Source: Candidatus Poribacteria bacterium (GTDB taxonomy: Bacteria > Poribacteria > WGA-4E > WGA-3G). Taken from it: a DNA stretch of 64,000 bases. The notes under the pieces were generated by a model. That model had not been told where the DNA came from and ran no database searches. It saw nothing but the letters and a program-made list of their open reading frames with translations. The position numbers and the translations under genes are program-made. How positions within the stretch are numbered: the stretch's first letter is position 1; every line of letters begins with the position of its first letter. The stretch spans positions 2,500 to 66,499 of the forward strand of contig PYJC01000170.1 of the NCBI GenBank assembly GCA_003635255.1, in the 5' to 3' direction. This document shows positions 32,408 to 59,940 of this stretch, piece after piece.

Positions 32408-32568
32408 TGACATTTGCTATTAACTTTTTCAGTTTCATCCTTATAATTAATGCAGTGGATATTTGCATGTATCATCATGCAAAATCTCATGTCCCATTTA
32501 TGAAGGAAACCGAAGGTATATTTTAAGGTTGACGGCTCCGAAAAAAAATAATAATAAAGGAGAAACCC

Positions 32569-32916
32569 ATGAAAACGATGACGCGTCTGAAAAATGGTAT
32601 TCCGATTTTGGAACCCCACGGTAAAATTGTCGGTCCTGCGGTATCGGAATTGCGAGAGAAACTCGCGTTAGAGTTATTAGACGCTTCCGATACACCCTGC
32701 TTTCTCATCAATTTCGAGCATGTTCACAAGATAGATAGTTCCGCGCTCGGCATGCTGGTAAATGTACATGTTATCGCGGCGCAGATGAATAGTCGTATCG
32801 GTATTATCAATATTGGGCGACACATTAAGAATTTACTCGTCCTAAGTCGGCTTGTGAGTATTTTTGAACATTTCGAGAGCGAGGATGCTGCGGTTTCGGC
32901 ATTCACCAGGGACTGA
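32569..32916 (+). CDS. Anti-sigma-factor antagonist (STAS/SpoIIAA-like), paralog 1
   Basis: 115 aa; conserved DSSALGMLV phospho-Ser region; GGAGA RBS. Confidence 0.8.
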   Translation: MKTMTRLKNGIPILEPHGKIVGPAVSELREKLALELLDASDTPCFLINFEHVHKIDSSALGMLVNVHVIAAQMNSRIGIINIGRHIKNLLVLSRLVSIFEHFESEDAAVSAFTRD

Positions 32917-48782: not shown

Positions 48783-48881
48783 GAGACATCCCCTTATAGG
48801 TGCGAGGTAACCACACAATGCTGACAGGCTATCCACATCCCTTTAACACAAGGCACCTCGCGAACACGCTACAATCATAAA

Positions 48882-49232
48882 CTATGGATGGCGCAGCAAG
48901 GCGACAACAGCATCATCTTCGCTCTCAAAACTTTTGAAGACGGTGATTAATCGCGCCATGACAATCAAGTTTTTGACATGTTTGTTCACATTAATCACCG
49001 CAATCTTCCCTCCATGCGGATGAATCTCGGAATAAACTTTCATGAGTGCGCCGAGCCCAGAACTATCCATTCCGGTTACCCCTTTAAAGTCAAACACCAG
49101 TCTCGGTGGCGAGGTAAGCATCGCAAGCGTCTCCTCCACGGTTTTCGAGACTTCTTCAATACCCGGGGAGATAATCCTACCGCTCAGCCTAAAAATAACG
49201 ACCCCTTCTCTCTCAGACACGGTGATTGCCAT
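48882..49232 (-). CDS. Anti-sigma-factor antagonist (STAS), paralog 3
   Basis: ...GMDSSGLGALMKV...; 116 aa. Confidence 0.8.
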   Translation of the reverse strand: MAITVSEREGVVIFRLSGRIISPGIEEVSKTVEETLAMLTSPPRLVFDFKGVTGMDSSGLGALMKVYSEIHPHGGKIAVINVNKHVKNLIVMARLITVFKSFESEDDAVVALLRHP

Positions 49233-49365
49233 AATGCATGTACTGTTCCTAAAAACCTATGCTTTTCGGTACATATCTATGGAAAGCAATAGACTTTTAG
49301 AGGGATCCTACCCCCTGTTACGAACACCGTCGTGTTCTAAGCCTGCCTACATCCAACTCAACCTG

Positions 49366-50592
49366 CTACGTCGCAGAAGATGTAAACGACTTACTTGCAC
49401 CAGGGTCCACGGTGCAAGGACGAACCGTCAAAGCACGCGCGACATTCTTAATGAATATCCCACGTGCGCCGTTCAAATCCCTATCCATACGATGACCTTC
49501 CGATGACTTGATAACCTTTGAACCCCCAAGGTTTGTGATAAGTTCGCCAGTCCAAGACACTGTTTTGGAAGTATACGCTTCACACACATCTATCACTTCA
49601 ACACCATATTCTTTCGCTTTCTGTTTCAAGAAAACTTTGAAACGATAATGTGAAAGGGTCAGCATCTGTCTAACAGATTTCTTTCGCAACTTCCGGGCAC
49701 CTCGCTTTGTCATCCGCTTCGTCTGAAAAGTTGGAAGCAGGATGATGTCAAAGTTTGTAACAAGAAAGTGTGCGACCTTCTTGTGAAGTTCATCGATAAG
49801 ATTACGGATTTTTACCTTTATTCTATTCGCGGCTTTACGCAAAACACGCCGTAGCGGGCGTTTCTCTTGCGTCGCACGCGATAAGAGATTATCGCAGTGT
49901 TGACAAAGCCTTTGAATGCGGTTGATACACTGCATACCTAACCAACCGAAGCAATCTTCACAGAAAAACGTCATAAAATCACGAACACCGGGGTCAAGTG
50001 CTACTATTCTAACGCTTGGTTCTCGCGTCTTTTTCTTCTCAACATACGGAACACAGAGAAAATAGCGTCCGTTTTCAAATACGAGTTGAGAATCCTTGAC
50101 CTCTGCATCTGTATCACGTTCTGAAACCTTACCTTTTCCTTGAGGTTTCGCTGGTAAAGGTTCTGACAGTTTCATCTCGCCTAAGAATCGGGTATAGAAC
50201 CCATTTTCTTTCAGAGAGTCCGCACGCAGATAAAGCGTCTGTTTGCGTTTTCTTGACCGAAACGAAACCTTTTGAAACTCACCCGTTTCTTTACATTTGA
50301 CTTTAGCACTTTTGACCGCCTGACACGCATCCATCACCGCTCCCACTTTTATCTGGCGTGGCGTTTCCGCGTGCCAGCCAGGGAGTTCGTCAAACACAAG
50401 GGGCACAAGCTTCTTGAAACTTCTTGGTGTGTCTTTTCGATCCAATAAACTCACTGAAGCGTTATACACATACCTTGAAGTCCCAAACCATTTACGAAGA
50501 ATCGCCTTCTGTTCCACTGTCGGAAAGATTTCTATCTTCTTTGATTTGGTCACGGTATCGCCGGAGTCCGGACATTCTACAGGAAAAGACAT
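49366..50592 (-). CDS. tnpB: TnpB-like (OrfB) RuvC-fold protein of the IS607 element
   Basis: IEIFPTVEQKAILRKWFGTSRYVYN N-terminus; RuvC-I ALDPGVRDF; RuvC-III MDRDLNGARGIF; the usual C-terminal CxxC...CxxC and the RuvC-II Glu are not evident (noted in findings). Confidence 0.7.
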   Translation of the reverse strand: MSFPVECPDSGDTVTKSKKIEIFPTVEQKAILRKWFGTSRYVYNASVSLLDRKDTPRSFKKLVPLVFDELPGWHAETPRQIKVGAVMDACQAVKSAKVKCKETGEFQKVSFRSRKRKQTLYLRADSLKENGFYTRFLGEMKLSEPLPAKPQGKGKVSERDTDAEVKDSQLVFENGRYFLCVPYVEKKKTREPSVRIVALDPGVRDFMTFFCEDCFGWLGMQCINRIQRLCQHCDNLLSRATQEKRPLRRVLRKAANRIKVKIRNLIDELHKKVAHFLVTNFDIILLPTFQTKRMTKRGARKLRKKSVRQMLTLSHYRFKVFLKQKAKEYGVEVIDVCEAYTSKTVSWTGELITNLGGSKVIKSSEGHRMDRDLNGARGIFIKNVARALTVRPCTVDPGASKSFTSSAT

Positions 50593-51100
50593 GCAGAATT
50601 GCGAGGAGATCGGCAGTAAGTTCTTCCTCTGGGGAACCGAAAACAGTTTCGTCGAGAACCACGACTTCTCCACCGTTTTGTTCGACCAAGAACTGTATGA
50701 CTTCGCCGCCGAATCGGGCGAGTCGATCCCGATGGGCAACAACAAGGCGGAGTTTATCACCTCGCAAGATGCGTTCCAGTAAGGTTCTAAGCCCTTTTCG
50801 TTTGAAGTTGATACCGCTACCGAAGTCTTTGATGATTTCTGCTTCCGGGTAGTGTTTTTGCAAGTGTGCCACTTGGGACGCAAGATCGTCTGATTGTCCT
50901 TTTCCACTAACCCTGCAATATCCAATGGTAGTAATATCTGTTCGGGTTTGTGCATCTATAAAACTTTGGACATCATATCTACGATGTCCGCCTCCTGTTC
51001 TTATGCAGGTGATTGCTCCGGCACGTTCCATCCGACGCAGATGGTCTACTGTTATTCCGAGCGTCTGCGCTGCTTCTCGTGGGGATTTATAGTTTTTCAT
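50492..51100 (-). CDS. tnpA: IS607-family TnpA serine recombinase with an N-terminal MerR-like HTH
   Basis: HTH PREAAQTLGITVDHLRRMERAG; catalytic Ser region GYCRVSGKGQSDDL; 202 aa. Confidence 0.8.
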   Translation of the reverse strand: MKNYKSPREAAQTLGITVDHLRRMERAGAITCIRTGGGHRRYDVQSFIDAQTRTDITTIGYCRVSGKGQSDDLASQVAHLQKHYPEAEIIKDFGSGINFKRKGLRTLLERILRGDKLRLVVAHRDRLARFGGEVIQFLVEQNGGEVVVLDETVFGSPEEELTADLLAILHVFSCRMSGLRRYRDQIKEDRNLSDSGTEGDSS

Positions 51101-51233
51101 ACCCTAATTATACCACATAAAAACAGATTTATCAAGTTTTATCTATATTTATCAAGTTTTAGAAGTGTTTAGGAACTGCTCCTCAATACTACAGTCGGCT
51201 TCGATCATAGGCGCGTTCTCTTAATTTTGCTGA

Positions 51234-51581
51234 TCAACTCTCATTTGATAACCCAGAAACCGCCTCGTCCTCGTTTTCAAAATGCTCAAAAATACTGACG
51301 AGCCGGCTCCGGACAATCAGATTTTTGATGTTTTTTCCAACATGGATGACACCGATACGACCGTTCTTACGCGTCGCAGCGACATGCGCACCCATCAGGG
51401 TCCCAAGACCAGAACTGTCCATCATCGTGACACGCTCGAAATTGATGAGGATACGCGGCGCATCAGAAGCATCAATCTGAGACGTGATAACGTCTCGTAA
51501 CTCTGATACGGAAGACCCCATTATTTTCCCATTCGGTTCCAAAATCGCAACGCCATCTTTTTGGCGAATCGTAGTTGCCAT
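51234..51581 (-). CDS. Anti-sigma-factor antagonist (STAS), paralog 4 (closest to paralog 1)
   Basis: AAGGAGA RBS; MATTIRQKDGVAILEPNGKIMGSSVSELR...DSSGLGTLMG. Confidence 0.8.
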   Translation of the reverse strand: MATTIRQKDGVAILEPNGKIMGSSVSELRDVITSQIDASDAPRILINFERVTMMDSSGLGTLMGAHVAATRKNGRIGVIHVGKNIKNLIVRSRLVSIFEHFENEDEAVSGLSNES

Positions 51582-52014
51582 GAATTTTCTCCTTACTTTA
51601 TTGTTAGAAAATTGAGTATACCAATCCACTCTCCTAATTTTATACTATTTTCAAACTATTTGTCAACCTGCAATTTTTAAGTGAGTGCAATATTTCGGTA
51701 ACTGGTTGTCAGAACCGGGATTTTCAGCCGGATGTCAAGCAGAAAGAATTGAAACGTGTATGTAGTTAAAACATTGCGGTAGGACAGTAGAAAGTGGTTT
51801 AATATTCGTTAAGTATCCTCATGAAAAACGGCACTTTATCGATAAAAATGGGCTTCGAGGTATGATTCCCGTTTATGTCTTATCAATCTGGGTTGGCATT
51901 TGCTTTACCGGATGTAGTATAATCGTACTGAGAGTGAAACTTGTCGGATTAGTTAATTTCTCATAGATTTTCGTTCAACTCACCTTGATACTAATTAGAA
52001 CAGGAAGGTAGGCA

Positions 52015-54291
52015 ATGTTTTCAGGAGTCATAACAGAAATTTACAAAAAAGTTTGTGAATCAACTGAGAAAAAACACTACGAGTTAAAAGCAGACATCGG
52101 AAATGCTTCTCACGAGTACAATAAGAACTACAGAGAGCGTCATGGACAGGTCAAAGTCTTCTGTGTAGGGATGCGGAAACCTATACCGCTTGACGATGTT
52201 TATGTTGGAGTTCAGTTTTTAGATGAGCACACGGCATCACGATATAGGTCGCCTGAAGAAGTTGAGCAAGAGTTCCGAGACAGAAGTTGGTGGCATTTCG
52301 CTTTAACTTCGGATGAACGCCAAGATGGAAAACAAGTTGCCAATGACGAACAGTATCTAATGTTGCTCGGTGGGCCTGGTGTTGGAAAATCAACTTTTCT
52401 CCGAAAAGTCGGACTTGAATCCTTAAAAGGAAAAGATGGGAGTTTTGCACACGAATGCATCCCGGTCTTCCTTGAACTAAAGCGATTCACGGAAGAGCAA
52501 ATTGATATTGAAGTCCTGATTACCCAGGAGTTTGAGACATGTGGTTACCCTTATCCCGATCATCTGGCGAACGCTGCGTTGAAATCCGGTAAACTCTTAA
52601 TACTCTTTGATGGGCTTGACGAAGTGCCAACGGCGAATGTTGACAACGTTATTCGTAAAATTGGAGATTTCGTCGATCAGTATAGCCAAAACCGCTTTAT
52701 TGCTTCATGCCGTACAGCAATATATAGAGGAGGGTTCACACGGTTTACAGAGGTAGAGATGGCAGACTTTGATGATTCACAGATTGAGACATATATCAAA
52801 AATTGGTTTGATTCAACCCCTCATCAATATCGGTATCAACTTGACAAGGAAATGAAAACTGCCGAACAGTGCTGGAAGGCATTGAACACAATAGGACATC
52901 ACGCGACAAAAGAGTTGGCACGTAATCCGTTATTGCTCACGCTTCTGTGTATGGTTTACGACAACTCACAAAACTTCCCGCAAAATCGGGCGGATCTCTA
53001 CGAAAAGGCACTCAGCATATTTATCGAGGAATGGGCGGCTGAAAAGCGAATCCGTCGAGAAGAATCAATCAGTCAGTATCTGGACATTGCGGCTGAAAAG
53101 CGAATGCTTTCTGAAATTGCGGCGAAAAATTTTGAAGTAGACCGTCTTTTTTTCGGTGAAGGCGAAATCCTTGCACAGATTCGAGAATTCGGTAAAGGGA
53201 ATGCCAATACACCCCCAACGTTTAATGCCTCTAAAATCTTGGAGACAATCCTTGTTGATCAAGGACTTTTTGTCGAGAGAGTCAGAGGTTCTTACTCTTT
53301 CTCTCATTTGACGTTTCAGGAGTATTTAACGGCGAATTATATTGTGAGGGATACGCGATCTATTAGAGGATTGGTAAAGAAGCATTTACATAATGAACAG
53401 TGGAGAGAAGTCTTTTTGCTGACATCCGGTCTGATGCATGAGGCAGACGATTTGCTTGTGGCGATGGAAGCGGAAGCCGCTAAATCCATAAATACCGATG
53501 ATAAAATCAAATTGTTGTTGCGCTGGGCAGAACGGATCACAGACACCACAGACAACCAACATAGTGGACTCGACCAGCGCGCCTTTGCAATCAATCAATA
53601 TCTTGTTCTGAACCAACTGAATAAGTTCCATGAAAAGGTTAAGTATAAAACTGAACAATCTCAAGACTCTGATCTTGGCGAAGTCTCTTACAACTTCCAT
53701 GGAAACCTCAACTACCTCTCCTCTGACTTCTATATCTATGACATCTACGGAGACATCAGTTCCTCCGTTGACATTTACAAGGACCTCCTCCACTACCGAG
53801 ACCTTTACCCTGACCTTTACCTCTATTGCAACCAAGCCCATTCCTTTGATGCCGTTCTACTTTCCTATTATGATTTTTACCATTACTTGGATGTGGCTTT
53901 CCACTCCTCTAACTTCTCTAAATTTGGAGAAAAGTTCGACAGGGAATTGAGCAAACGGATAAAAGTTGTCAGATATATAAAGGAAACAAAAATTTTTGAA
54001 GGCGTAGATTTACAGCGGATGGTTCAACGGTTTAATGAAGAGCAGGAATTCATCAAAGCAGCAGGTGAAAGGAAATCTGTTAAACCGCCAGCGGAGTCTA
54101 TTCACGACACATGGCTTTCTGTTTTGGGTATTACCAACGACATGCTCATAATTTCAGACGAGGAGTTGGAGAGTTGTCTTCGGTATCTCCGCGCAGTAAA
54201 ACTCATCGTTGCGTGTAAAGAAGCAGCTGGGCGTGTTTCACCTAAAGTATGGCAGAAAATTGAGGAGAAACTTCTGGTTTCAAGGACATAA
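52015..54291 (+). CDS. NACHT-family STAND NTPase (bacterial NACHT, likely antiviral) with a C-terminal D-x-Y-rich repeat region
   Basis: Walker A LLGGPGVGKST; Walker B LLILFDGLDEV; the C-terminal IYDIYGDISSSVDIYKDLLHYRDLYPDLYLY region. Confidence 0.75.
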   Translation: MFSGVITEIYKKVCESTEKKHYELKADIGNASHEYNKNYRERHGQVKVFCVGMRKPIPLDDVYVGVQFLDEHTASRYRSPEEVEQEFRDRSWWHFALTSDERQDGKQVANDEQYLMLLGGPGVGKSTFLRKVGLESLKGKDGSFAHECIPVFLELKRFTEEQIDIEVLITQEFETCGYPYPDHLANAALKSGKLLILFDGLDEVPTANVDNVIRKIGDFVDQYSQNRFIASCRTAIYRGGFTRFTEVEMADFDDSQIETYIKNWFDSTPHQYRYQLDKEMKTAEQCWKALNTIGHHATKELARNPLLLTLLCMVYDNSQNFPQNRADLYEKALSIFIEEWAAEKRIRREESISQYLDIAAEKRMLSEIAAKNFEVDRLFFGEGEILAQIREFGKGNANTPPTFNASKILETILVDQGLFVERVRGSYSFSHLTFQEYLTANYIVRDTRSIRGLVKKHLHNEQWREVFLLTSGLMHEADDLLVAMEAEAAKSINTDDKIKLLLRWAERITDTTDNQHSGLDQRAFAINQYLVLNQLNKFHEKVKYKTEQSQDSDLGEVSYNFHGNLNYLSSDFYIYDIYGDISSSVDIYKDLLHYRDLYPDLYLYCNQAHSFDAVLLSYYDFYHYLDVAFHSSNFSKFGEKFDRELSKRIKVVRYIKETKIFEGVDLQRMVQRFNEEQEFIKAAGERKSVKPPAESIHDTWLSVLGITNDMLIISDEELESCLRYLRAVKLIVACKEAAGRVSPKVWQKIEEKLLVSRT

Positions 54292-54321
54292 AGAACACGC
54301 GAAGTTCTCACATCCGAAATA

Positions 54322-55713
54322 TCAAGGCACCCACAAAACAGATTCCAACCAACCAATAGCCGTCTGTTCGTCTTGTTCAATGGCGATTTCGACTGCCCGC
54401 TTTGCACATTCCAAAAGGTCTTTAGCGTGCTTGCGTAAGTTAAAGGATTCGACGACTTTTTGTCGGATTTCATACTGCTTATCGGTTGTGATGAATGGGA
54501 TAACGATTCTACTGAATTCCTCCCTATTGATTGCTGTAAGGATTGTTCCGCTACACCCTTTCTTGAGTTGTAACTGACCTACGCTACTTTTCAAAAACAC
54601 CAATAAAGTTTCCGAATTAAGTACATCCGAATGGATAGCATGGAATCCAGTTGAACATAGGGCATTATCATATTCCTCTGTTACCAAGGCTATACTTTCC
54701 AGTGAACCTTCAACAGATGAAGCAATAACATCTCCTGTGTTCACCTTACATCGCGCTCTACTTGGCAAGTCTTGTCCTTGTGCTACCATACAATCCTTTA
54801 TTTCTCCACTGCTCCCAATATCGGCAAGTTCAATATACTTGTATTCCGTTTCAGGTTTAGGTTTGAAATTGCTATCTTTTAAATGGACTTGATTCGCAAC
54901 CGTGCCCCAACCCCCCGGATAACTTTTAATGGCACTGATAATATCATCGTATCTTGGCTGGAAGTAATCTGCGTCAATGCGCTCTGCGCGTTGCATGCTT
55001 GCATAATCCGTGGCAAAGGCTAATCTGTGCTTCGGTTGCCAATCGGCGAGTCCGAGTTCGCTAAGGAGAAGGGTTTGGGTTTCGGCATACCGCGTCTTTG
55101 ATAATTCCATTAGTTCTTTTGATCGGAGATAGGCTTTCTCTATCTTCGTTTGAAGGTCTTCCCAACTCGGTACAGGAATTTGATACAAAAAAGCCGGAGC
55201 AATATGAGGTTGTGCACTACCATATTTTCCTCTCTCTACTAATGCCTCACCATACTTAGTATTAAGGAAAATAGTGAGAAAGAAAGGGTTTAAGTTTCGG
55301 CTCCGGATAATAAGGGTATCGGACATTGATATAGCAGGATTATTTTCAAGATAGATTGCACATTGACCTACATTTGCGCCGGATCGCATTATCAGAATAT
55401 CTTTGTAATGTATCGTGTTTTCCTTCAAACGTTCTGCGTCTTCTTCCGATATATAGACCGGATTCGCTGTCAGATCAATGGAGAGCGGACGCACATTTTG
55501 CCCTCTTAATAACAGTACGCCATTCTCCACATAATTTCGCTTGATCTCTTTAGGGTGTCTGATGTTGACCTGAAAATCAATGAGTTTGCGCGAACCAATT
55601 GCTTCAAGTCGGCGTCGAATCGCTAAATAATCAGGTCGAAAAAACTCCGCATCAAACCGCAGAGAATGGGAGGCATCCACTATAGATTGGTAATCAACGG
55701 TAGAATACTGCAT
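54322..55713 (-). CDS. hsdS: Type I restriction-modification specificity subunit (two target-recognition domains)
   Basis: 463 aa; duplicated TRD/conserved-repeat architecture; start overlaps the stop of the upstream gene. Confidence 0.75.
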   Translation of the reverse strand: MQYSTVDYQSIVDASHSLRFDAEFFRPDYLAIRRRLEAIGSRKLIDFQVNIRHPKEIKRNYVENGVLLLRGQNVRPLSIDLTANPVYISEEDAERLKENTIHYKDILIMRSGANVGQCAIYLENNPAISMSDTLIIRSRNLNPFFLTIFLNTKYGEALVERGKYGSAQPHIAPAFLYQIPVPSWEDLQTKIEKAYLRSKELMELSKTRYAETQTLLLSELGLADWQPKHRLAFATDYASMQRAERIDADYFQPRYDDIISAIKSYPGGWGTVANQVHLKDSNFKPKPETEYKYIELADIGSSGEIKDCMVAQGQDLPSRARCKVNTGDVIASSVEGSLESIALVTEEYDNALCSTGFHAIHSDVLNSETLLVFLKSSVGQLQLKKGCSGTILTAINREEFSRIVIPFITTDKQYEIRQKVVESFNLRKHAKDLLECAKRAVEIAIEQDEQTAIGWLESVLWVP

Positions 55714-56375
55714 TATTGTGTTTTACCATCCCGTTTTTCTATTTTTTCTTTATCTTTTTCAGGAAGATTATCGTAGTGTTCTTGAATTTGGTTAGGTTGT
55801 GTAATCAAGACAATAGTAATCATATTGATTAGGGTAAAAAGTGCTTGAACATCGGTAGTATCGTCAAATATGATCTCACCAGGGTGGACAGCATGATTGC
55901 CTGTCACTCGAACAATATCAAGTGCTTGCTGAATTTGCTGACTAATACCTTCTTTTACAAGATTCTTTATATTGGTATTGAGATCCCCGGTCCTACCGCA
56001 ATGTTCAAGAAGCATCTCTATAGCTAATCTCAACAAAGCACAAGCGGCACGCGGAGATTGCTCCGCTATAGTATCGGCTTCGTCATAAACTTGTTTTATA
56101 TCCTCCGGTAAATCACTATTGGCTGGCGGAGCTGTGCGCGGGGCAGGATAGATAATATTTTCAGCCAGCCAAAATGTTTTCTCCTTACAGTGTAAACAAA
56201 TAGAGATTTCTACTTCTCCTTGCTCAAGAGAAATTGGACCATCTGGTGTATACGTCCTTTCTGTATCACTTTTATTATATTCGGATATGTGATTCCAACT
56301 TTGATGGGCATAAACATCGCAATACGGACAATTAAATGTACCACTTCTATGTTTAGGTGGGTAATATTTGGACAT
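55713..56375 (-). CDS. DUF4145-like protein embedded between hsdM and hsdS
   Basis: 220 aa; N-terminal C-x2-C...C-x2-C; a typical genomic position for DUF4145. Confidence 0.5.
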   Translation of the reverse strand: MSKYYPPKHRSGTFNCPYCDVYAHQSWNHISEYNKSDTERTYTPDGPISLEQGEVEISICLHCKEKTFWLAENIIYPAPRTAPPANSDLPEDIKQVYDEADTIAEQSPRAACALLRLAIEMLLEHCGRTGDLNTNIKNLVKEGISQQIQQALDIVRVTGNHAVHPGEIIFDDTTDVQALFTLINMITIVLITQPNQIQEHYDNLPEKDKEKIEKRDGKTQ

Positions 56376-56378
56376 GTT

Positions 56379-58460
56379 TTATCTCCAAAAACTTAAGTTT
56401 TCACTTTTTGCCCATTCAATAAAGGCTTCCGCAATCCCGTCAGGGAGCTCCTCATTGTGGTTATGTAGATCGTGATCAACAATCAGGTGCCCGTTTTTGT
56501 CCAGTTTGTGCTGCCCATCACTATTTTCAAGAAAAATATAATCGCCAGAACTATCCTTACCACCCTTCTCACTCACTGCCAAAAAGACGGAGTAGTTGTC
56601 AACTTTTCGACAGAGGGGCCCCACGCTTGGATCATCGTTCCATTTTTGCACAAACAGAACGCTCGTTTTCGTGCCGGTATGCGGTTTGAAGGTATTCCCG
56701 TGCAAACTGACGATAGCCAAAATACGGGCACGTTCCGCGATAAATTCACGGACGTATTGGTCAGATGTGTTGTTAAATCTGCCTTGCGGTAGCACAATCG
56801 CCATGCGCCCCCCGGGTTTGAGGAAATCAAGATTGCGTTCAATGAACAGAATATCGCGCCCGACTTTGGTGTGTGCTTTGCCGTTCTGCTTAAAGGTGAG
56901 ATTGTATTGATGGAGGATACGGCTCTCCTTGATGTCCCCGGCAAAAGGTGGATTCGCCATCAGAATATCAAAACCGAATGATTTGTTCTCGTTTTGTTCC
57001 ATCCTTAACGCTTTAAGGCGATCAAAACCGTCGCCATAAGTGCGTACCCATCTGTTATTTCTCTCTGTACTGTCTTCCCACCGCTCATAGTCCAGTGTGT
57101 TGAGGTGCAAGACATTCGTTTCACCGTCTCCTGCGATCAGATTGAGGGTTCTCGCTACCCGAACGGTCTTTTCGTCGAAATCGATTCCAAACACCTTGAG
57201 GACGTGTTCTTTGTCTTCTGCTGGGATTGCCGCATTCGTGAAAAGTGTCCCTGTCAGTTTGAAAATGGTATGCACCGGAAAGCCGCAGCTCCCCGCGGCG
57301 GTGTCAATCATATATTCCCCTGGCTGCGGATTGAGCATCTTGACACACATATCTATGACGTGGCGTGGTGTGAAGTATTGCCCCTTTTCGCCTTTCGCAG
57401 ATTTGCTCACCAGATATTCAAATGCTTCATCAACAACTTGTAAATTGGAGTTGAACAACTTTATATCCTGCAAACTTGAAACGCAGACTGCGAGGTGGCT
57501 GTCAGAGAGTTCAAACGTTGAATGTTCCGGAAAAACGTCTCTCCACTGGTCTCTTGCCTCGTCAAACAGTCGCTGAATTTTAGTTTTGAGTTCGGTATCG
57601 GTTTGACCCGTGTTTCTAAATGCCATGACTCGAAATCCATCATCCGAAATATCTTCCGCTCTCAGTCGAATAATATCATAATCCGATTCATAGGTTACGC
57701 CGGTTCTGTGTTCCTTGTGGGTATTTTGTGTCTGACGAACAAAATAATCAATAATTCCTTTGTCTTTATAACTGAGTGCTTCATCATAGAGTTTAGTAAA
57801 GATGAGTTTGAAGACTTCTTCAAAGACATCTACGCCTGCATTAGCGAGTACCTCATCCTCTAATTCCAAAATAATGTCTTTTAAGGATTTCCGTTCTGTA
57901 ACGAGTTTGTCCTTAAGTATGAGGTCCTTAAGGGTAAAACGTTCGCTGAGGATATCCGCCAAAGTCTGATCAGCGTTAGGAATATCGGTAATATCTTCAA
58001 AGTAGTTCGGATCTCTCCGGTGGTAGTGCGAAATCTGTTGTCCGTTTGTCCATACAGCAATGGGCGCGCCAGTGGCGTTGCAGTAGGAACGGAGTTGTGC
58101 CTTGCCATCTTGGAGTTTCGGCTTTTTGACTTCAACGATAATATAGGGGGTATCGGCTCTGTCTTTGTCAAGGATAACAATGTCAGCGCGTTTCTTTTCC
58201 CTACCAAAGTTGACGAGGTGTTCAAACCGGACACGTTCTCGCGGATAGTGGTATCGCTTCAGGAGCCGTGCAGCGTAAAGTTGACGGATGAGTTCTTCGG
58301 GTTTTAGCTGGACTGGTTTTTTGCGGATCGCGCAGTAGGTGAAGGGTTTTTCGGTGCCTTCTATCTTTTGGCGTAGGTCTTGGATTTCGGATTCGTCGAA
58401 CAGGTCGAGGTGGTAGTTGCTGTCTCTGAGTATCGTTTGGATGATGTCCGGTTGGGTCAT
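56379..58460 (-). CDS. hsdM: Type I restriction-modification N6-adenine DNA methyltransferase subunit
   Basis: Motif I IDTAAGSCGF and motif IV ILMANPPFAG; GGAG RBS before the ATG at 58460. Confidence 0.85.
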   Translation of the reverse strand: MTQPDIIQTILRDSNYHLDLFDESEIQDLRQKIEGTEKPFTYCAIRKKPVQLKPEELIRQLYAARLLKRYHYPRERVRFEHLVNFGREKKRADIVILDKDRADTPYIIVEVKKPKLQDGKAQLRSYCNATGAPIAVWTNGQQISHYHRRDPNYFEDITDIPNADQTLADILSERFTLKDLILKDKLVTERKSLKDIILELEDEVLANAGVDVFEEVFKLIFTKLYDEALSYKDKGIIDYFVRQTQNTHKEHRTGVTYESDYDIIRLRAEDISDDGFRVMAFRNTGQTDTELKTKIQRLFDEARDQWRDVFPEHSTFELSDSHLAVCVSSLQDIKLFNSNLQVVDEAFEYLVSKSAKGEKGQYFTPRHVIDMCVKMLNPQPGEYMIDTAAGSCGFPVHTIFKLTGTLFTNAAIPAEDKEHVLKVFGIDFDEKTVRVARTLNLIAGDGETNVLHLNTLDYERWEDSTERNNRWVRTYGDGFDRLKALRMEQNENKSFGFDILMANPPFAGDIKESRILHQYNLTFKQNGKAHTKVGRDILFIERNLDFLKPGGRMAIVLPQGRFNNTSDQYVREFIAERARILAIVSLHGNTFKPHTGTKTSVLFVQKWNDDPSVGPLCRKVDNYSVFLAVSEKGGKDSSGDYIFLENSDGQHKLDKNGHLIVDHDLHNHNEELPDGIAEAFIEWAKSENLSFWR

Positions 58461-58640
58461 AGGTTTCTCCATTGTGTTTTTTGGATGGAATTTTACCATG
58501 AAGTAGAGAAGTTGTCAAAGAAAATTTTAATGAAATAAGTTTGATTTCTACTTGCTTATATGTCATACTATAATTAATCTTTGTTATAAGATTTCAACAC
58601 GTCGTGAGAAGTGATCCTTCCGCGGATAGGAGGTAATATT

Positions 58641-59585
58641 ATGCCTGCCAAAAGACACCATTTTTTACCACAATTCTACTTACGCGGTTTCTTAAAACAC
58701 AATAGAAATCAACTGACTGTAATTAAAATGGACAACGGAGATTTTTTTAAAACCGACACCAAAAACGTAGGACTTGAAACAGATTGGAATCGAGTGGGTG
58801 ACGACAGATCTTCCACAGAAGAGCATTTTGCAAAAATAGACGGTCAAACTTCGCGACTATTGAGCAAAATAGATCATGATGAAACACTGCCAACAGATGT
58901 AGATGATATATCTTTGCTATTCTATTTTATTGCAAGATTATCTGTTCATAATCCTTCTCTAAGAGATCGTCTGCGAAAAGATAGGATAAACCATTTAAAA
59001 CATGTCGGCAGATGGCAAACTTCAAGCCCCGGTATTTATTATGAGGCTAACAAGGATAAAGATATAGATAAATTGGCACCATACGAACGCGTGAAAAAAG
59101 CGGTAGAGAATTTAGTAGATGGCAAATATAAAATTAGTTTTGGACACGGTTATTTTCTTCAGCATGAAACCAAATTTATAGAACAAGATCTAATTCCTAT
59201 ATTTTGTGACTTACACTGGTCGCTTTTAATAGCGAAAGATCCGACAGAAAGTTTTGTATGCTCAGATCATCCTGTTTTCATGAATACAGGGCTTACTGAA
59301 CTCTCTGGAGAAACAGAATTAATTCCCAGCGTAGCATTTTCACTACCTTTGAACCGACGGATATGCTTGTATGCTCATAGTATCGGTTTTTTGCCCGAAA
59401 TCTACTATATTTCTAAAGAAAATTGGATGGGTAATTCAATGTTAAGTGTCCCTCATCTTAATAGCAGAACAATATATAGGGCAAAACGCCATGTATATGC
59501 TGGAGACTTAAATTGGGAAATTGCAACGGCGAGCGGAGAAAAGAGAAATGCTAATTCTCTGATTGGTAAAAGATTAAGGATATAG
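58641..59585 (+). CDS. DUF4238 protein (defense-island-associated, Abi-like)
   Basis: AGGAGG RBS; hallmark N-terminal HHFLPQFYLRGF. Confidence 0.65.
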   Translation: MPAKRHHFLPQFYLRGFLKHNRNQLTVIKMDNGDFFKTDTKNVGLETDWNRVGDDRSSTEEHFAKIDGQTSRLLSKIDHDETLPTDVDDISLLFYFIARLSVHNPSLRDRLRKDRINHLKHVGRWQTSSPGIYYEANKDKDIDKLAPYERVKKAVENLVDGKYKISFGHGYFLQHETKFIEQDLIPIFCDLHWSLLIAKDPTESFVCSDHPVFMNTGLTELSGETELIPSVAFSLPLNRRICLYAHSIGFLPEIYYISKENWMGNSMLSVPHLNSRTIYRAKRHVYAGDLNWEIATASGEKRNANSLIGKRLRI

Positions 59586-59940
59586 TAGATACTTGGTATA
59601 AACAGTATCACTTTGAAGACAATTCTTTGAAAAACTTAGCACTTGATACAGTTCGCTCTTAGGTTGCTATGAAAGTGTGTACGGCACGCGGTGCATGCCT
59701 ACTACTTTTGATTTAGTTCCGGTTTGCTATGTTTGATATGCGTTGGGATTTCTTTTTGACTTGACCGGTGAGGGTTTTGGCGGTGGTTGTGAGCTGCTTT
59801 ACGTCTTCAGCGGTGATTTCAATTCCCGAAAAGTTTCCTTTCAAAAAATGGCTCTGCCTGACAATCAGATTTCGCTTGTCTTAATTCCGAAAAATCGCTA
59901 TAATTTCTGCTAAATTCTCCATTAGACGGAAAGGAATCCA

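Follow-up and report, generated by a model that had tools for sequence, protein, structure and literature searches.

This 64,000 nt stretch of Candidatus Poribacteria DNA (GenBank assembly GCA_003635255.1, contig PYJC01000170.1; referred to in full as the window) contains, between two tandem STAS-domain genes, an insertion sequence whose TnpB protein appeared, in a reading made from the sequence alone, to have a non-canonical zinc finger and a non-canonical RuvC-II motif. This raises the question of whether the protein is a TnpB with a rearranged zinc finger, a Fanzor-like enzyme or a nuclease-attenuated derivative. Our analysis indicates that positions 49243-51178 are likely to be an intact, recently inserted IS607-family insertion sequence with a promoter, tnpA, tnpB and an ωRNA, belonging to a clade common to Candidatus Poribacteria and marine cyanobacteria. 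This degree of confidence applies jointly to the whole reading, i.e. the IS607 element, a long, pro-Fanzor-like and zinc-free TnpB, the ωRNA and the mechanism proposed below. All features of the element and both flanking STAS genes lie on the minus strand.

The two genes carry clear family signatures. The 202-residue product of tnpA (50492-51100), an IS607 serine recombinase with a MerR-type HTH (helix-turn-helix) at residues 7-48 and a resolvase catalytic domain at residues 59-180, scored 159.7 bits on the NCBIfam IS607 transposase model NF033518 (cut-off 110) and matched PF00376 (residues 7-42) and PF00239 (residues 59-180). The tnpB gene (49366-50955, with its predicted ATG at 50955) encodes 529 residues of the DPG/alternative-Glu, or pro-Fanzor-like, lineage without zinc-finger Cys; the protein scored 118.8 bits on NF040570, guided_TnpB (cut-off 100), and matched PF12323 (HTH_OrfB_IS605) and PF07282 (Cas12f1-like_TNB). 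The element lies between a downstream STAS-domain gene of the anti-sigma-factor antagonist family (48882-49232; PF01740, E 6e-17), which it splits from its Shine-Dalgarno sequence, and an upstream STAS-domain paralogue (51234-51629; PF01740, E 2.2e-14), the two paralogues being 39% identical with one another. The surroundings are bacterial, with genes for a PAS histidine kinase, Usp, RadC and restriction-modification proteins, and the closest loci are in metagenome-assembled genomes of Candidatus Poribacteria.

The ends of the element were defined by alignment with more than 20 related Candidatus Poribacteria copies and by comparison with the empty site. At the right end, similarity among the copies stops at ...TTTTTAGGAACAG (also written ...ATAGGTTTTTAGGAACAG), with 49243 as the last base, and at the left end it begins with CAGTTCCTAAAC, with 51178 as the first base, giving 1,936 bp when the AG core dinucleotide is counted once; these limits lie close to the 49240-51180 span proposed in the sequence-only reading. 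The two ends carry a 9-bp inverted repeat: GTTCCTAAA at the left (51168-51176), conserved in related copies, is the reverse complement of TTTAGGAAC at the right (49245-49253), which is followed by AG (49244-49243). The terminal AACAG is invariant, and TA(A/G)GAACAG is found in all copies with the long right-end variant described below. An exact look-up of the downstream STAS protein among metagenome contigs, of which 23 were read, yielded eight empty-site contigs among the matches listed (L057-L064). The insertion is absent from all eight, the two STAS genes there are 65 nt apart and the spacer reads ...GTAGTATTTAGGAG TACATGCATT ATG; one of these contigs, L058, is 97-98% identical with the window at the DNA level. 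The empty site reads TTTAGGAG followed directly by TACATGCATTATG (also TTTAGGAG followed by TACATG), and the flanks of the window, when joined, give the same sequence except for one single nucleotide polymorphism. AG is present at both element junctions, as the matching core dinucleotide of IS607 elements. As the joined flanks restore the empty site, the insertion was precise, without target-site duplication, and a single AG is shared by the junctions; as it is polymorphic among near-identical strains, it is also recent. Single Poribacteria genomes hold up to four diverged copies of the element at different sites, so that the element, being both multicopy and polymorphic, is mobile, and no further copies were found within the window. 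Some different Poribacteria assemblies (L030 and L014; L017 and L042) have identical or near-identical flanks and represent orthologous insertions, and the locus counts given below therefore exceed the number of independent insertions.

With the identity of the element established, we turn to the nuclease. The strings quoted in the sequence-only reading, ALDPGVRDF, IILLPTFQTKRM, YTSKTVSWTGELITNLGGSKVIKSSEGH and MDRDLNGARG, are all present in TnpB, and its suggestion of a Fanzor-like protein is borne out by both sequence and fold. The closest solved relative is the mimivirus Fanzor2 ApmFz2, PDB 9B0L (phmmer E 1.1e-23; profile E 1.5e-68); Foldseek matched the predicted TnpB to 9B0L with E 6.8e-25 over 458 of 466 columns, and the structures matched by the model are those of TnpB, Cas12f and Fanzor2 proteins with the WED-REC-RuvC-TNB fold. 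In HMMER alignments the RuvC-I Asp D321 (49993-49995), in the DPG motif of DPGVRDF, lies opposite D324 in DPGLRDF of ApmFz2, E459 (49579-49581) opposite E467, and the RuvC-III Asp D493 of MDRDLNGARG (49477-49479) opposite D501, and all three residues are invariant in an alignment of 55 diverse sequences (A1). The position of the canonical RuvC-II Glu is held by P408 (49732-49734), in a conserved LLPxFET motif in which the Pro is at least 90% conserved. Replacement of the canonical Glu by Pro or Gly has been described for Fanzor and TnpB2 proteins (PMC10530073), and a compensating Glu approx. 45-50 residues downstream, six residues before the zinc finger, is likewise a published feature (PMC10530073, PMC10711439, PMC10691335). 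In ApmFz2, whose catalytic triad is D324/E467/D501 (PMC11832414), E467 is catalytic (PMC10530073, PMC11832414) and the E467A mutation abolishes activity (PMC10530073). The combination of DPG and alternative Glu is the fingerprint that defines Fanzors and pro-Fanzors (Yoon et al. 2023, PMC10711439), and the window protein displays it as ALDPGVRDF and E459-AYTSKT-V466, with E459 lying six residues ahead of where the zinc finger used to be. DPG, LLPxFET, the alternative Glu and the RuvC-III Asp are common to nearly all of the approx. 130 full-length representatives that we aligned, taken from the best 150 and 35-63% identical. The non-canonical RuvC-II is the known arrangement of the TnpB2/pro-Fanzor/Fanzor lineage and no novelty; the earlier impression was right in so far as Pro408 holds the canonical site, but the Glu is not missing, having been relocated to E459. 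The Glu of LLPTFETKQM was also considered as a shifted catalytic residue and rejected, the site being variable (E/Q/D/K/A/N/S), with Asn in ApmFz2 and Gln in the window.

As the D321-E459-D493 triad is intact, nuclease attenuation, one of the possibilities raised from the sequence alone, is not supported. The stronger form of this idea, that TnpB is a nuclease-dead or attenuated derivative reused as an RNA-guided DNA binder or regulator, in which the missing zinc finger and canonical Glu would be marks of inactivation, could point to the absence of four zinc-finger Cys, to the Pro in place of Glu and to the position of the element directly upstream of a regulatory STAS gene. We consider it quite unlikely, given that the triad is not only intact but invariant, that ApmFz2 and TvTnpB are catalytically active with this arrangement (PMC10530073), and that the gene belongs to a complete, tnpA-bearing mobile element which is multicopy, has varied flanks and is polymorphic between near-identical strains. 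In addition, the guide is whatever flanks each copy, whereas the TldR proteins (TnpB-like nuclease-dead repressors) have lost RuvC residues, are immobile and direct their guide to a fixed host promoter.

The zinc finger, in contrast with the catalytic Glu, is truly absent, so that misregistration by eye, the possibility attached to the earlier reading as what would make this a canonical TnpB, accounts for half of its apparent oddity. In the part of the TNB domain where the zinc finger used to be (residues 466-486; 49498-49560), V466, T469, K483 and E486 align with the four Cys of CSNC...CESC in 9B0L, in agreement with the earlier remark that the C-terminal CxxC...CxxC had been replaced; VSWTGE is conserved, and the PF07282 match at residues 436-500 spans the full length of the profile. 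The Cys-less ...EAYTSKTVSWTGE...KSSEGH... occurs in all 120 of the closest homologues (70-91% identity), and EAYTSKTVSWTGE, again without Cys, is found in copies from Okeania, Dapis, Xenococcaceae, Hyellaceae and Prochloraceae (42-56% identity). CxxC...CxxC is missing from 61 of the 97 full-length 50%-cluster representatives that carry the alternative-Glu motif; the usual substitute for the first Cys pair is xSW(T/S), and some intermediates retain one Cys. Since the loss is conserved in the 120 close homologues and in the cyanobacterial relatives, it does not reflect decay. AlphaFold2 gave pLDDT (predicted local distance difference test) values of 87-91 over the segment, and the TNB domain appears to retain its fold in the absence of zinc, probably around the conserved Trp468. 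That ‘some large TnpB branches’ have lost the zinc finger is mentioned in PMC10691335, so the phenomenon is known in general; the published pro-Fanzor pattern search demanded both Cys pairs (PMC10711439), and this zinc-free clade would therefore have been missed by it. The zinc-free clade was examined as the nearest to Fanzor2, and is not, since zinc-finger-bearing representatives score better against ApmFz2 (1e-39 compared with approx. 1e-30).

It had also been proposed that the zinc finger was rearranged, on the basis of a different Cys cluster after RuvC-I. This cluster is present (C332, C335, C343, C351 and C354; 49894-49962), with the spacing C-x2-C-x7-C-x7-C-x2-C and not x6 and x8 as first described, but it is no conserved metal site. 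Among 111 close homologues the five positions are Cys in 0, 38, 98, 111 and 87 sequences respectively, C332 being unique to the window copy and replaced by Ser in 85 of the 111. That the zinc finger has moved and that these five Cys form a replacement site is suggested by the window copy itself, in which one CxxC lies at a predicted β-hairpin and the other on the helix that follows. Such a site is nevertheless extremely improbable: its first Cys exists only in this copy and its second in approximately one-third of the close homologues, relatives at 35-70% identity, which also lack the zinc finger, retain only the fourth (C351), and a single predicted helix (343-363) holds three of the five Cys, which gives no zinc-knuckle geometry. 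We therefore retain the reading of a TnpB that has lost its zinc finger and has not replaced it; the apparent dispensability of the finger in a large, conserved and mobile clade bears both on the role of the finger and on the engineering of compact editors.

An unusual property of the locus lies at the other end of TnpB. The two genes had been thought to overlap by approx. 100 nt, Met122 (50592) having been taken as the start of tnpB, whereas the conserved ATG lies at 50955 and the overlap extends over 464 nt (50492-50955), i.e. about three quarters of tnpA, with TnpB residues 1-154 in the +1 frame of tnpA codons 49-202, which encode the recombinase catalytic domain. The tnpB frame is open for 460-650 nt inside tnpA in 38 of the 49 two-gene loci, cyanobacteria included, down to 42% identity and always in the +1 frame. 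When tnpA was shuffled among synonymous codons, 5-12 stops appeared in this frame and the probability of finding none was at most 0.0025 per locus and 0.001 for the window; a point against the strength of this test is that it was run on loci preselected for an open frame; the P values hold for each locus, but those of close copies are not independent. The test was passed separately by several lineages at 42-69% identity, and the +2 frame of tnpA actually contains 5-17 stops. The third-position divergence of tnpA falls from 0.52 outside the overlap to 0.33 inside it, and an N-terminal extension of 120-260 residues can be aligned in 57 distant representatives, with the conserved motifs PYWN, LWLPT.TD and SWFST. 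The Met at 50955 is kept in all Poribacteria copies and has an equivalent in cyanobacteria. On a plasmid of Trichormus variabilis (NZ_CP047243.1; L065), a 553-residue tnpB frame has its N-terminal motifs intact next to a tnpA that has decayed to a 95-residue remnant; this homologue keeps the zinc finger.

These data have to be set against two other explanations of the overlap. In the first, TnpB would be the short protein of 408 residues starting at Met122, and the upstream open frame an untranslated by-product of conserved tnpA sequence. Current annotation agrees with this, as RefSeq gives just 402 residues for the Trichormus homologue and 391 for that of Nostoc PCC 7120 (pCC7120alpha; L066) and many database entries have 382-396; moreover, disorder is predicted for residues 1-56, and the ATG at 50955 has no Shine-Dalgarno-like motif in front of it, so that the start is placed by conservation only. 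A by-product of tnpA would not, however, be expected to stay free of stops in 38 of 49 loci when shuffles and the other frame both acquire several, nor to contain a nearly invariant W60 (at least 90% conserved) and an invariant W99 in the 55 diverse sequences, nor to persist where tnpA has decayed. An equivalent region is present in solo viral Fanzor2 genes and is part of the solved ApmFz2 protein (PMC11832414), and together with the conserved Met these findings render the short form quite unlikely. In the second explanation, ribosomes would reach the N-terminal region from tnpA through a programmed +1 or -2 frameshift, yielding a TnpA-TnpB fusion, and would not begin at a start codon of its own. 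Frames that overlap by 464-650 nt, a cyanobacterial tnpB frame that opens only approx. 30-90 nt after the start of tnpA and, once more, the missing Shine-Dalgarno-like motif would suit this mechanism; set against them are a stop codon immediately before the ATG at 50955 in the window, the Met that every Poribacteria copy has there and that recurs at the corresponding place in cyanobacteria, and the viral Fanzor2 proteins and the Trichormus copy, which have their own start Met and no MerR HTH. A Candidatus Poribacteria protein in the NCBI database (P0093), annotated as a 491-residue ‘hypothetical protein’ with resolvase and TNB domains, was considered as a fusion supporting frameshifting and rejected. 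This one database ‘fusion’ results from an internal deletion joining TnpA residue ~131 to TnpB residue ~174. Frameshifting is accordingly rated as very unlikely, below the short form. We favour the 529-residue TnpB as the real form, in which case the 464 nt would serve the recombinase catalytic domain and TnpB residues 1-154 at once, making this a dual-coding stretch of unusual length, and current annotation of the relatives trims approx. 90-150 N-terminal residues.

Given this N-terminal extension and the similarity of the remainder of the protein to ApmFz2, we compared the extension with the N-terminal domain of Fanzor2. In ApmFz2 this domain, made up of RuvC-R and thumb, occupies residues 53-130 behind a disordered stretch (residues 1-53) and, according to PMC11832414, is missing from other TnpB structures. 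The window TnpB has 136 residues before the core compared with 132 in ApmFz2, and AlphaFold2 predicts disorder at residues 1-56 and then, with moderate confidence, a helix (62-70) and strands (90-93 and 101-106). The S98-W99-F100 motif (50656-50664), in which S98 and F100 are at least 90% conserved in the same 55 sequences, is the proposed counterpart of S83-W84-Y85 in the RuvC-R subdomain of ApmFz2; the full-length profile pairs KSWFST with N82-S83-W84-Y85, two of whose residues, N82 and S83, touch the pseudoknot of the ωRNA (PMC11832414). In a full-length MAFFT alignment with 11 giant-virus Fanzor2 proteins, both conserved Trp residues share columns with their viral counterparts, the bacterial proteins having approx. 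23 more residues between them, and the solo giant-virus Fanzor2 genes examined retain the equivalent N-terminal region. The Foldseek alignment with 9B0L, which takes in 458 of 466 columns, points the same way. From these comparisons, the N-terminal domain of the window TnpB is probably equivalent to the RuvC-R/thumb domain of Fanzor2.

If so, a tentative scenario for the origin of that domain can be put forward, one that we regard as a real possibility but do not yet favour. The Fanzor2 N-terminal domain may have arisen in bacteria, and not in eukaryotes or their viruses, by overprinting in the +1 frame of the catalytic half of an IS607 transposase, within a large clade of such long TnpBs in cyanobacteria and sponge-associated Poribacteria, many of them zinc-free and targeting Shine-Dalgarno sites. 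The long-TnpB clade would have remained largely unnoticed because annotation truncates the N-terminus and because the motif searches for pro-Fanzors demanded a zinc finger. In the literature on pro-Fanzors and Fanzor2 we found no description of this domain in bacterial relatives or of tnpA/tnpB overprinting, which is not proof of absence. In this context, what is apparently new is that the N-terminal domain of TnpB overprints tnpA over a long, conserved stretch and is likely to be identical with that of Fanzor2, together with the size and host range (Poribacteria and cyanobacteria) of the zinc-free DPG/alternative-Glu clade, the AG core and the placement of copies between Shine-Dalgarno sequence and start codon. 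Already known are the element type, the relocated Glu and, in general terms, zinc-finger-less TnpB branches. These data would position a bacterial element near the root of the eukaryotic Fanzors, suggest that the structured Fanzor2 N-terminal domain was already bacterial, and extend the ‘pro-Fanzor’ lineage beyond cyanobacteria to sponge symbionts, which matters for scenarios of transfer to eukaryotes.

An ωRNA had been expected around 49240-49400, and a structured RNA is indeed found at approx. 49243-49471, overlapping the last 60-105 nt or so of tnpB. The covariation-supported core of this scaffold lies at 49243-49425, and its overall length is approx. 190-230 nt. The alignment comprised the last 280 nt of 20 copies with the long right-end variant, for which RNAalifold gave 76 pairs, with 98.9% of cells as standard pairs and 19 pairs with compensatory changes (95 cells). 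None of 500 column shuffles reached these values, and structures slid by 1-3 columns gave at most five such pairs. The scaffold is closed by a long-range helix of GUUC (49425-49422) with GAAC (49248-49245), which stops 2 nt short of the right end, just ahead of the guide, and encloses four covarying stems (49418-49394, 49391-49340, 49337-49322, and 49300-49293 with 49256-49249) and one invariant stem. A scan of 48800-51700 against Rfam at E <= 1 gave two chance matches, a microRNA and a small nucleolar RNA, and no ωRNA family. Beyond the right end, conservation ends at 49243 in all copies, and the putative guide-encoding flank TACATGCATTATGGCAATCA (49223-49242, the guide length being set by analogy with known systems) differs in every copy, spans the STAS start codon (ATG, 49232-49230) and also directly follows TAGGAG in the empty sites. 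Two right-end architectures occur among the copies: a short one (...CAGGTTCAAAGGAACAG) ending 60-86 nt after the tnpB stop (L016, L018-L021, L028, L029 and L043), and a long one ending 115-187 nt after it (123 nt in the window), with approx. 110 nt of extra stems between a degenerate CAGGTTCAAAGGAACAG motif and the true end.

The flanks also reveal the insertion target. The left flank of the element, GAGGAG (51179-51184), is the Shine-Dalgarno sequence of the downstream STAS gene, and its terminal AG is the probable crossover dinucleotide. The left flanks of related copies end in GGAG in 17 of 19 cases, compared with a background frequency of 0.0029 per position in these loci, and in AG in all 19, with A at -5 and -6 in 16-17 of 19. 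On the right, the start codon of an open reading frame of at least 60 codons follows within 4-12 nt in 29 of 30 copies. Copies of this family are thus inserted between the Shine-Dalgarno AAGGAG and the initiation codon and point the same way as the host gene, which makes for an unusual transposon niche. As the target-adjacent motif (TAM) coincides with the transposase target in IS607 systems (bioRxiv 10.1101/2023.11.20.567912; PMC10711439), we infer by analogy a TAM ending in GGAG here, with GAGGAG as the probable TAM of this copy and an AAGGAG-type TAM predicted for the family. The right end TTTTTAGGAACAG (49243-49256) resembles the replaced target TTTAGGAG of the empty sites. Once inserted, the element places an AGGA motif ahead of the host start codon, the distance to the ATG being 14 nt for the STAS gene of the window and 9-14 nt in other copies; the right-end AGGA may partly stand in for the displaced Shine-Dalgarno sequence.

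Upstream of tnpA, a putative sigma-70-like promoter, TTGATA-17 nt-TATAAT with an extended TG, matches the consensus at 11 of 12 positions (51107-51135). Its -10 hexamer ends 6 nt upstream of the tnpA ATG (51100), and the tnpA mRNA may therefore be leaderless, in which case translation of tnpB would begin at an internal ATG, 145 nt further downstream. A terminator-like scan flagged a 9-bp hairpin (GGACATCGT...ATGATGTCC) followed by a T-rich run at 50968-50989, inside tnpA and 13 nt upstream of the tnpB start, which might control the translation or transcription of tnpB.

Taken together, these features suggest the following mechanism, for which the ends, gene content, empty site, overlap, conservation and RNA covariation are observed here, while the enzymatic activities, the TAM, the translation start of tnpB and the independence from zinc are inferred. 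The TnpA serine recombinase would move the element in the form of double-stranded DNA, both excision and integration proceeding through crossover at the AG dinucleotide, its target being an AAGGAG Shine-Dalgarno sequence shortly ahead of a host start codon, with the element co-oriented with the host gene. TnpB would be translated from 50955 inside tnpA, its first 154 codons lying in the +1 frame of the sequence for the recombinase catalytic domain and giving a disordered tail (residues 1-56) and then a small structured domain with W60 and W99. The nuclease would use the rearranged D321-E459-D493 triad, with a TNB domain folded without the four zinc-binding Cys. The ωRNA, from about 49471 or 49425 to 49243, would overlap the 3' end of tnpB and read through the right end, the flank supplying the guide TACATGCATTATGG... 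By analogy with the characterized IS605 and IS607 TnpBs, the TnpB-ωRNA complex would recognize the TAM (...GGAG) and a guide-matched target in empty or excised sites and cut it, which would favour retention and spread of the element; the IS607 TnpA and TnpB biochemistry underlying this analogy is given in bioRxiv 10.1101/2023.11.20.567912 and PMC10711439.

Besides the missing Shine-Dalgarno-like motif and the preselection of loci mentioned above, several results weigh against parts of this interpretation. The pLDDT of the N-terminal domain exceeds ~78 only at residues 61-70 and 101-110 and is below 50 at 1-56, 76-92 and 121-131. A profile of this domain alone (A3) found no match in the PDB at E <= 10, 9B0L included, and hhalign of the bacterial against the viral N-terminal profiles aligned just 18 columns around SWF, with P = 0.007 and a probability of 5.5%. 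With the domain taken in isolation the homology is weak, for which reason it is rated no higher than probable, and it is the weakest link in the argument. The ωRNA helices upstream of 49425 (to 49471 or 49517) are almost without covariation and lie within coding sequence; being coding and near-invariant, they are uncertain. Finally, the window copy reads PTFQTKRM, with Gln where most relatives have Glu, at the variable site that is Asn in ApmFz2.

Two further observations concern the wider neighbourhood. A third STAS-like sequence lies at 32557-32897, on the opposite strand approx. 19 kb away, and is 69% identical at the DNA level with the upstream STAS paralogue of L058. In addition, window positions 51,700-59,860 (approx. 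8.2 kb) are missing from the otherwise syntenic L058, where they would be expected between RadC and the upstream STAS gene. This stretch looks like a strain-specific defence island and encodes a NACHT/NCH2 STAND NTPase (52015-54291, plus strand), a 463-residue protein with no Pfam match (54322-55713, minus strand), a DUF4145 protein (55713-56375, minus strand), a protein with HSDR_N and N6_Mtase domains (56379-58499, minus strand) and a DUF4238 protein (58611-59585, plus strand).

Among characterized systems, the element resembles the IS607 TnpBs of the pro-Fanzor/TnpB2 type (Yoon et al. 2023, PMC10711439; Jiang et al. 2023, PMC10530073), with which it shares the DPG RuvC-I, the Glu six residues before the zinc-finger position, the Pro at the canonical Glu site, a neighbouring IS607 serine recombinase, cyanobacterial relatives and a 3' guide RNA reading out of the right end. 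It differs from them in that its clade lacks CxxC...CxxC, in its host, Candidatus Poribacteria, pro-Fanzors having been described as mostly or exclusively cyanobacterial, and in its AG core and AAGGAG target in place of GG and (T)GGG. The best match in sequence and fold, at approx. 22% identity, is ApmFz2, the Fanzor2 of Acanthamoeba polyphaga mimivirus (L79; 9B0L; PMC11832414), with D324/E467/D501 corresponding to D321/E459/D493 and an N-terminal extension of about the same length, a disordered start and an SW(F/Y) motif, which in ApmFz2 contacts the ωRNA pseudoknot. In contrast, ApmFz2 is viral, binds one zinc through CSNC...CESC, has a nuclear localization signal, Gly at the canonical Glu site and the TAM GGG, and its viral N-terminal domain, as in the other Fanzor2 proteins, lacks the approx. 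23 extra residues between the two conserved Trp of the bacterial domain. The ApmFz2 homologues examined, from mamavirus (93% identical) and Megavirus, are solo genes with no called tnpA alongside, whereas the window TnpB lies beside tnpA. ISXfa1 (PMC10711439) and the Clostridium botulinum IStron (bioRxiv 10.1101/2023.11.20.567912) likewise have a TnpA of the serine-recombinase type that begins with an HTH, and they insert precisely, without duplicating the target site; their core dinucleotides match at the two junctions, their TAM equals the transposase target and their ωRNA spans the right end, but their TnpBs are of approx. 400 residues and their target is TGGG/GG, compared with an AG core and 464 nt of dual-coding tnpA here. 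The canonical IS200/IS605 TnpB of ISDra2 (PDB 8H1J and 8EXA) has the same WED-REC-RuvC-TNB fold (Foldseek E 1e-15 to 2e-13; target-normalized template modelling score 0.72-0.75) and a 3' ωRNA; it differs by its canonical RuvC-II Glu, four-Cys (C4) zinc finger, lack of an N-terminal domain, Y1 transposase and TTGAT TAM. Finally, the zinc-finger-less branches of Altae-Tran et al. 2023 (PMC10691335), e.g. RIIIr-4, have also lost the C4 finger across a whole conserved branch, which the authors read as compatible with activity; in RIIIr-4, however, the RuvC-III Asp is replaced by His and the gene is linked to RHH (ribbon-helix-helix)/MazE, whereas in the window TnpB RuvC-III is canonical and it is RuvC-II that has been rearranged.

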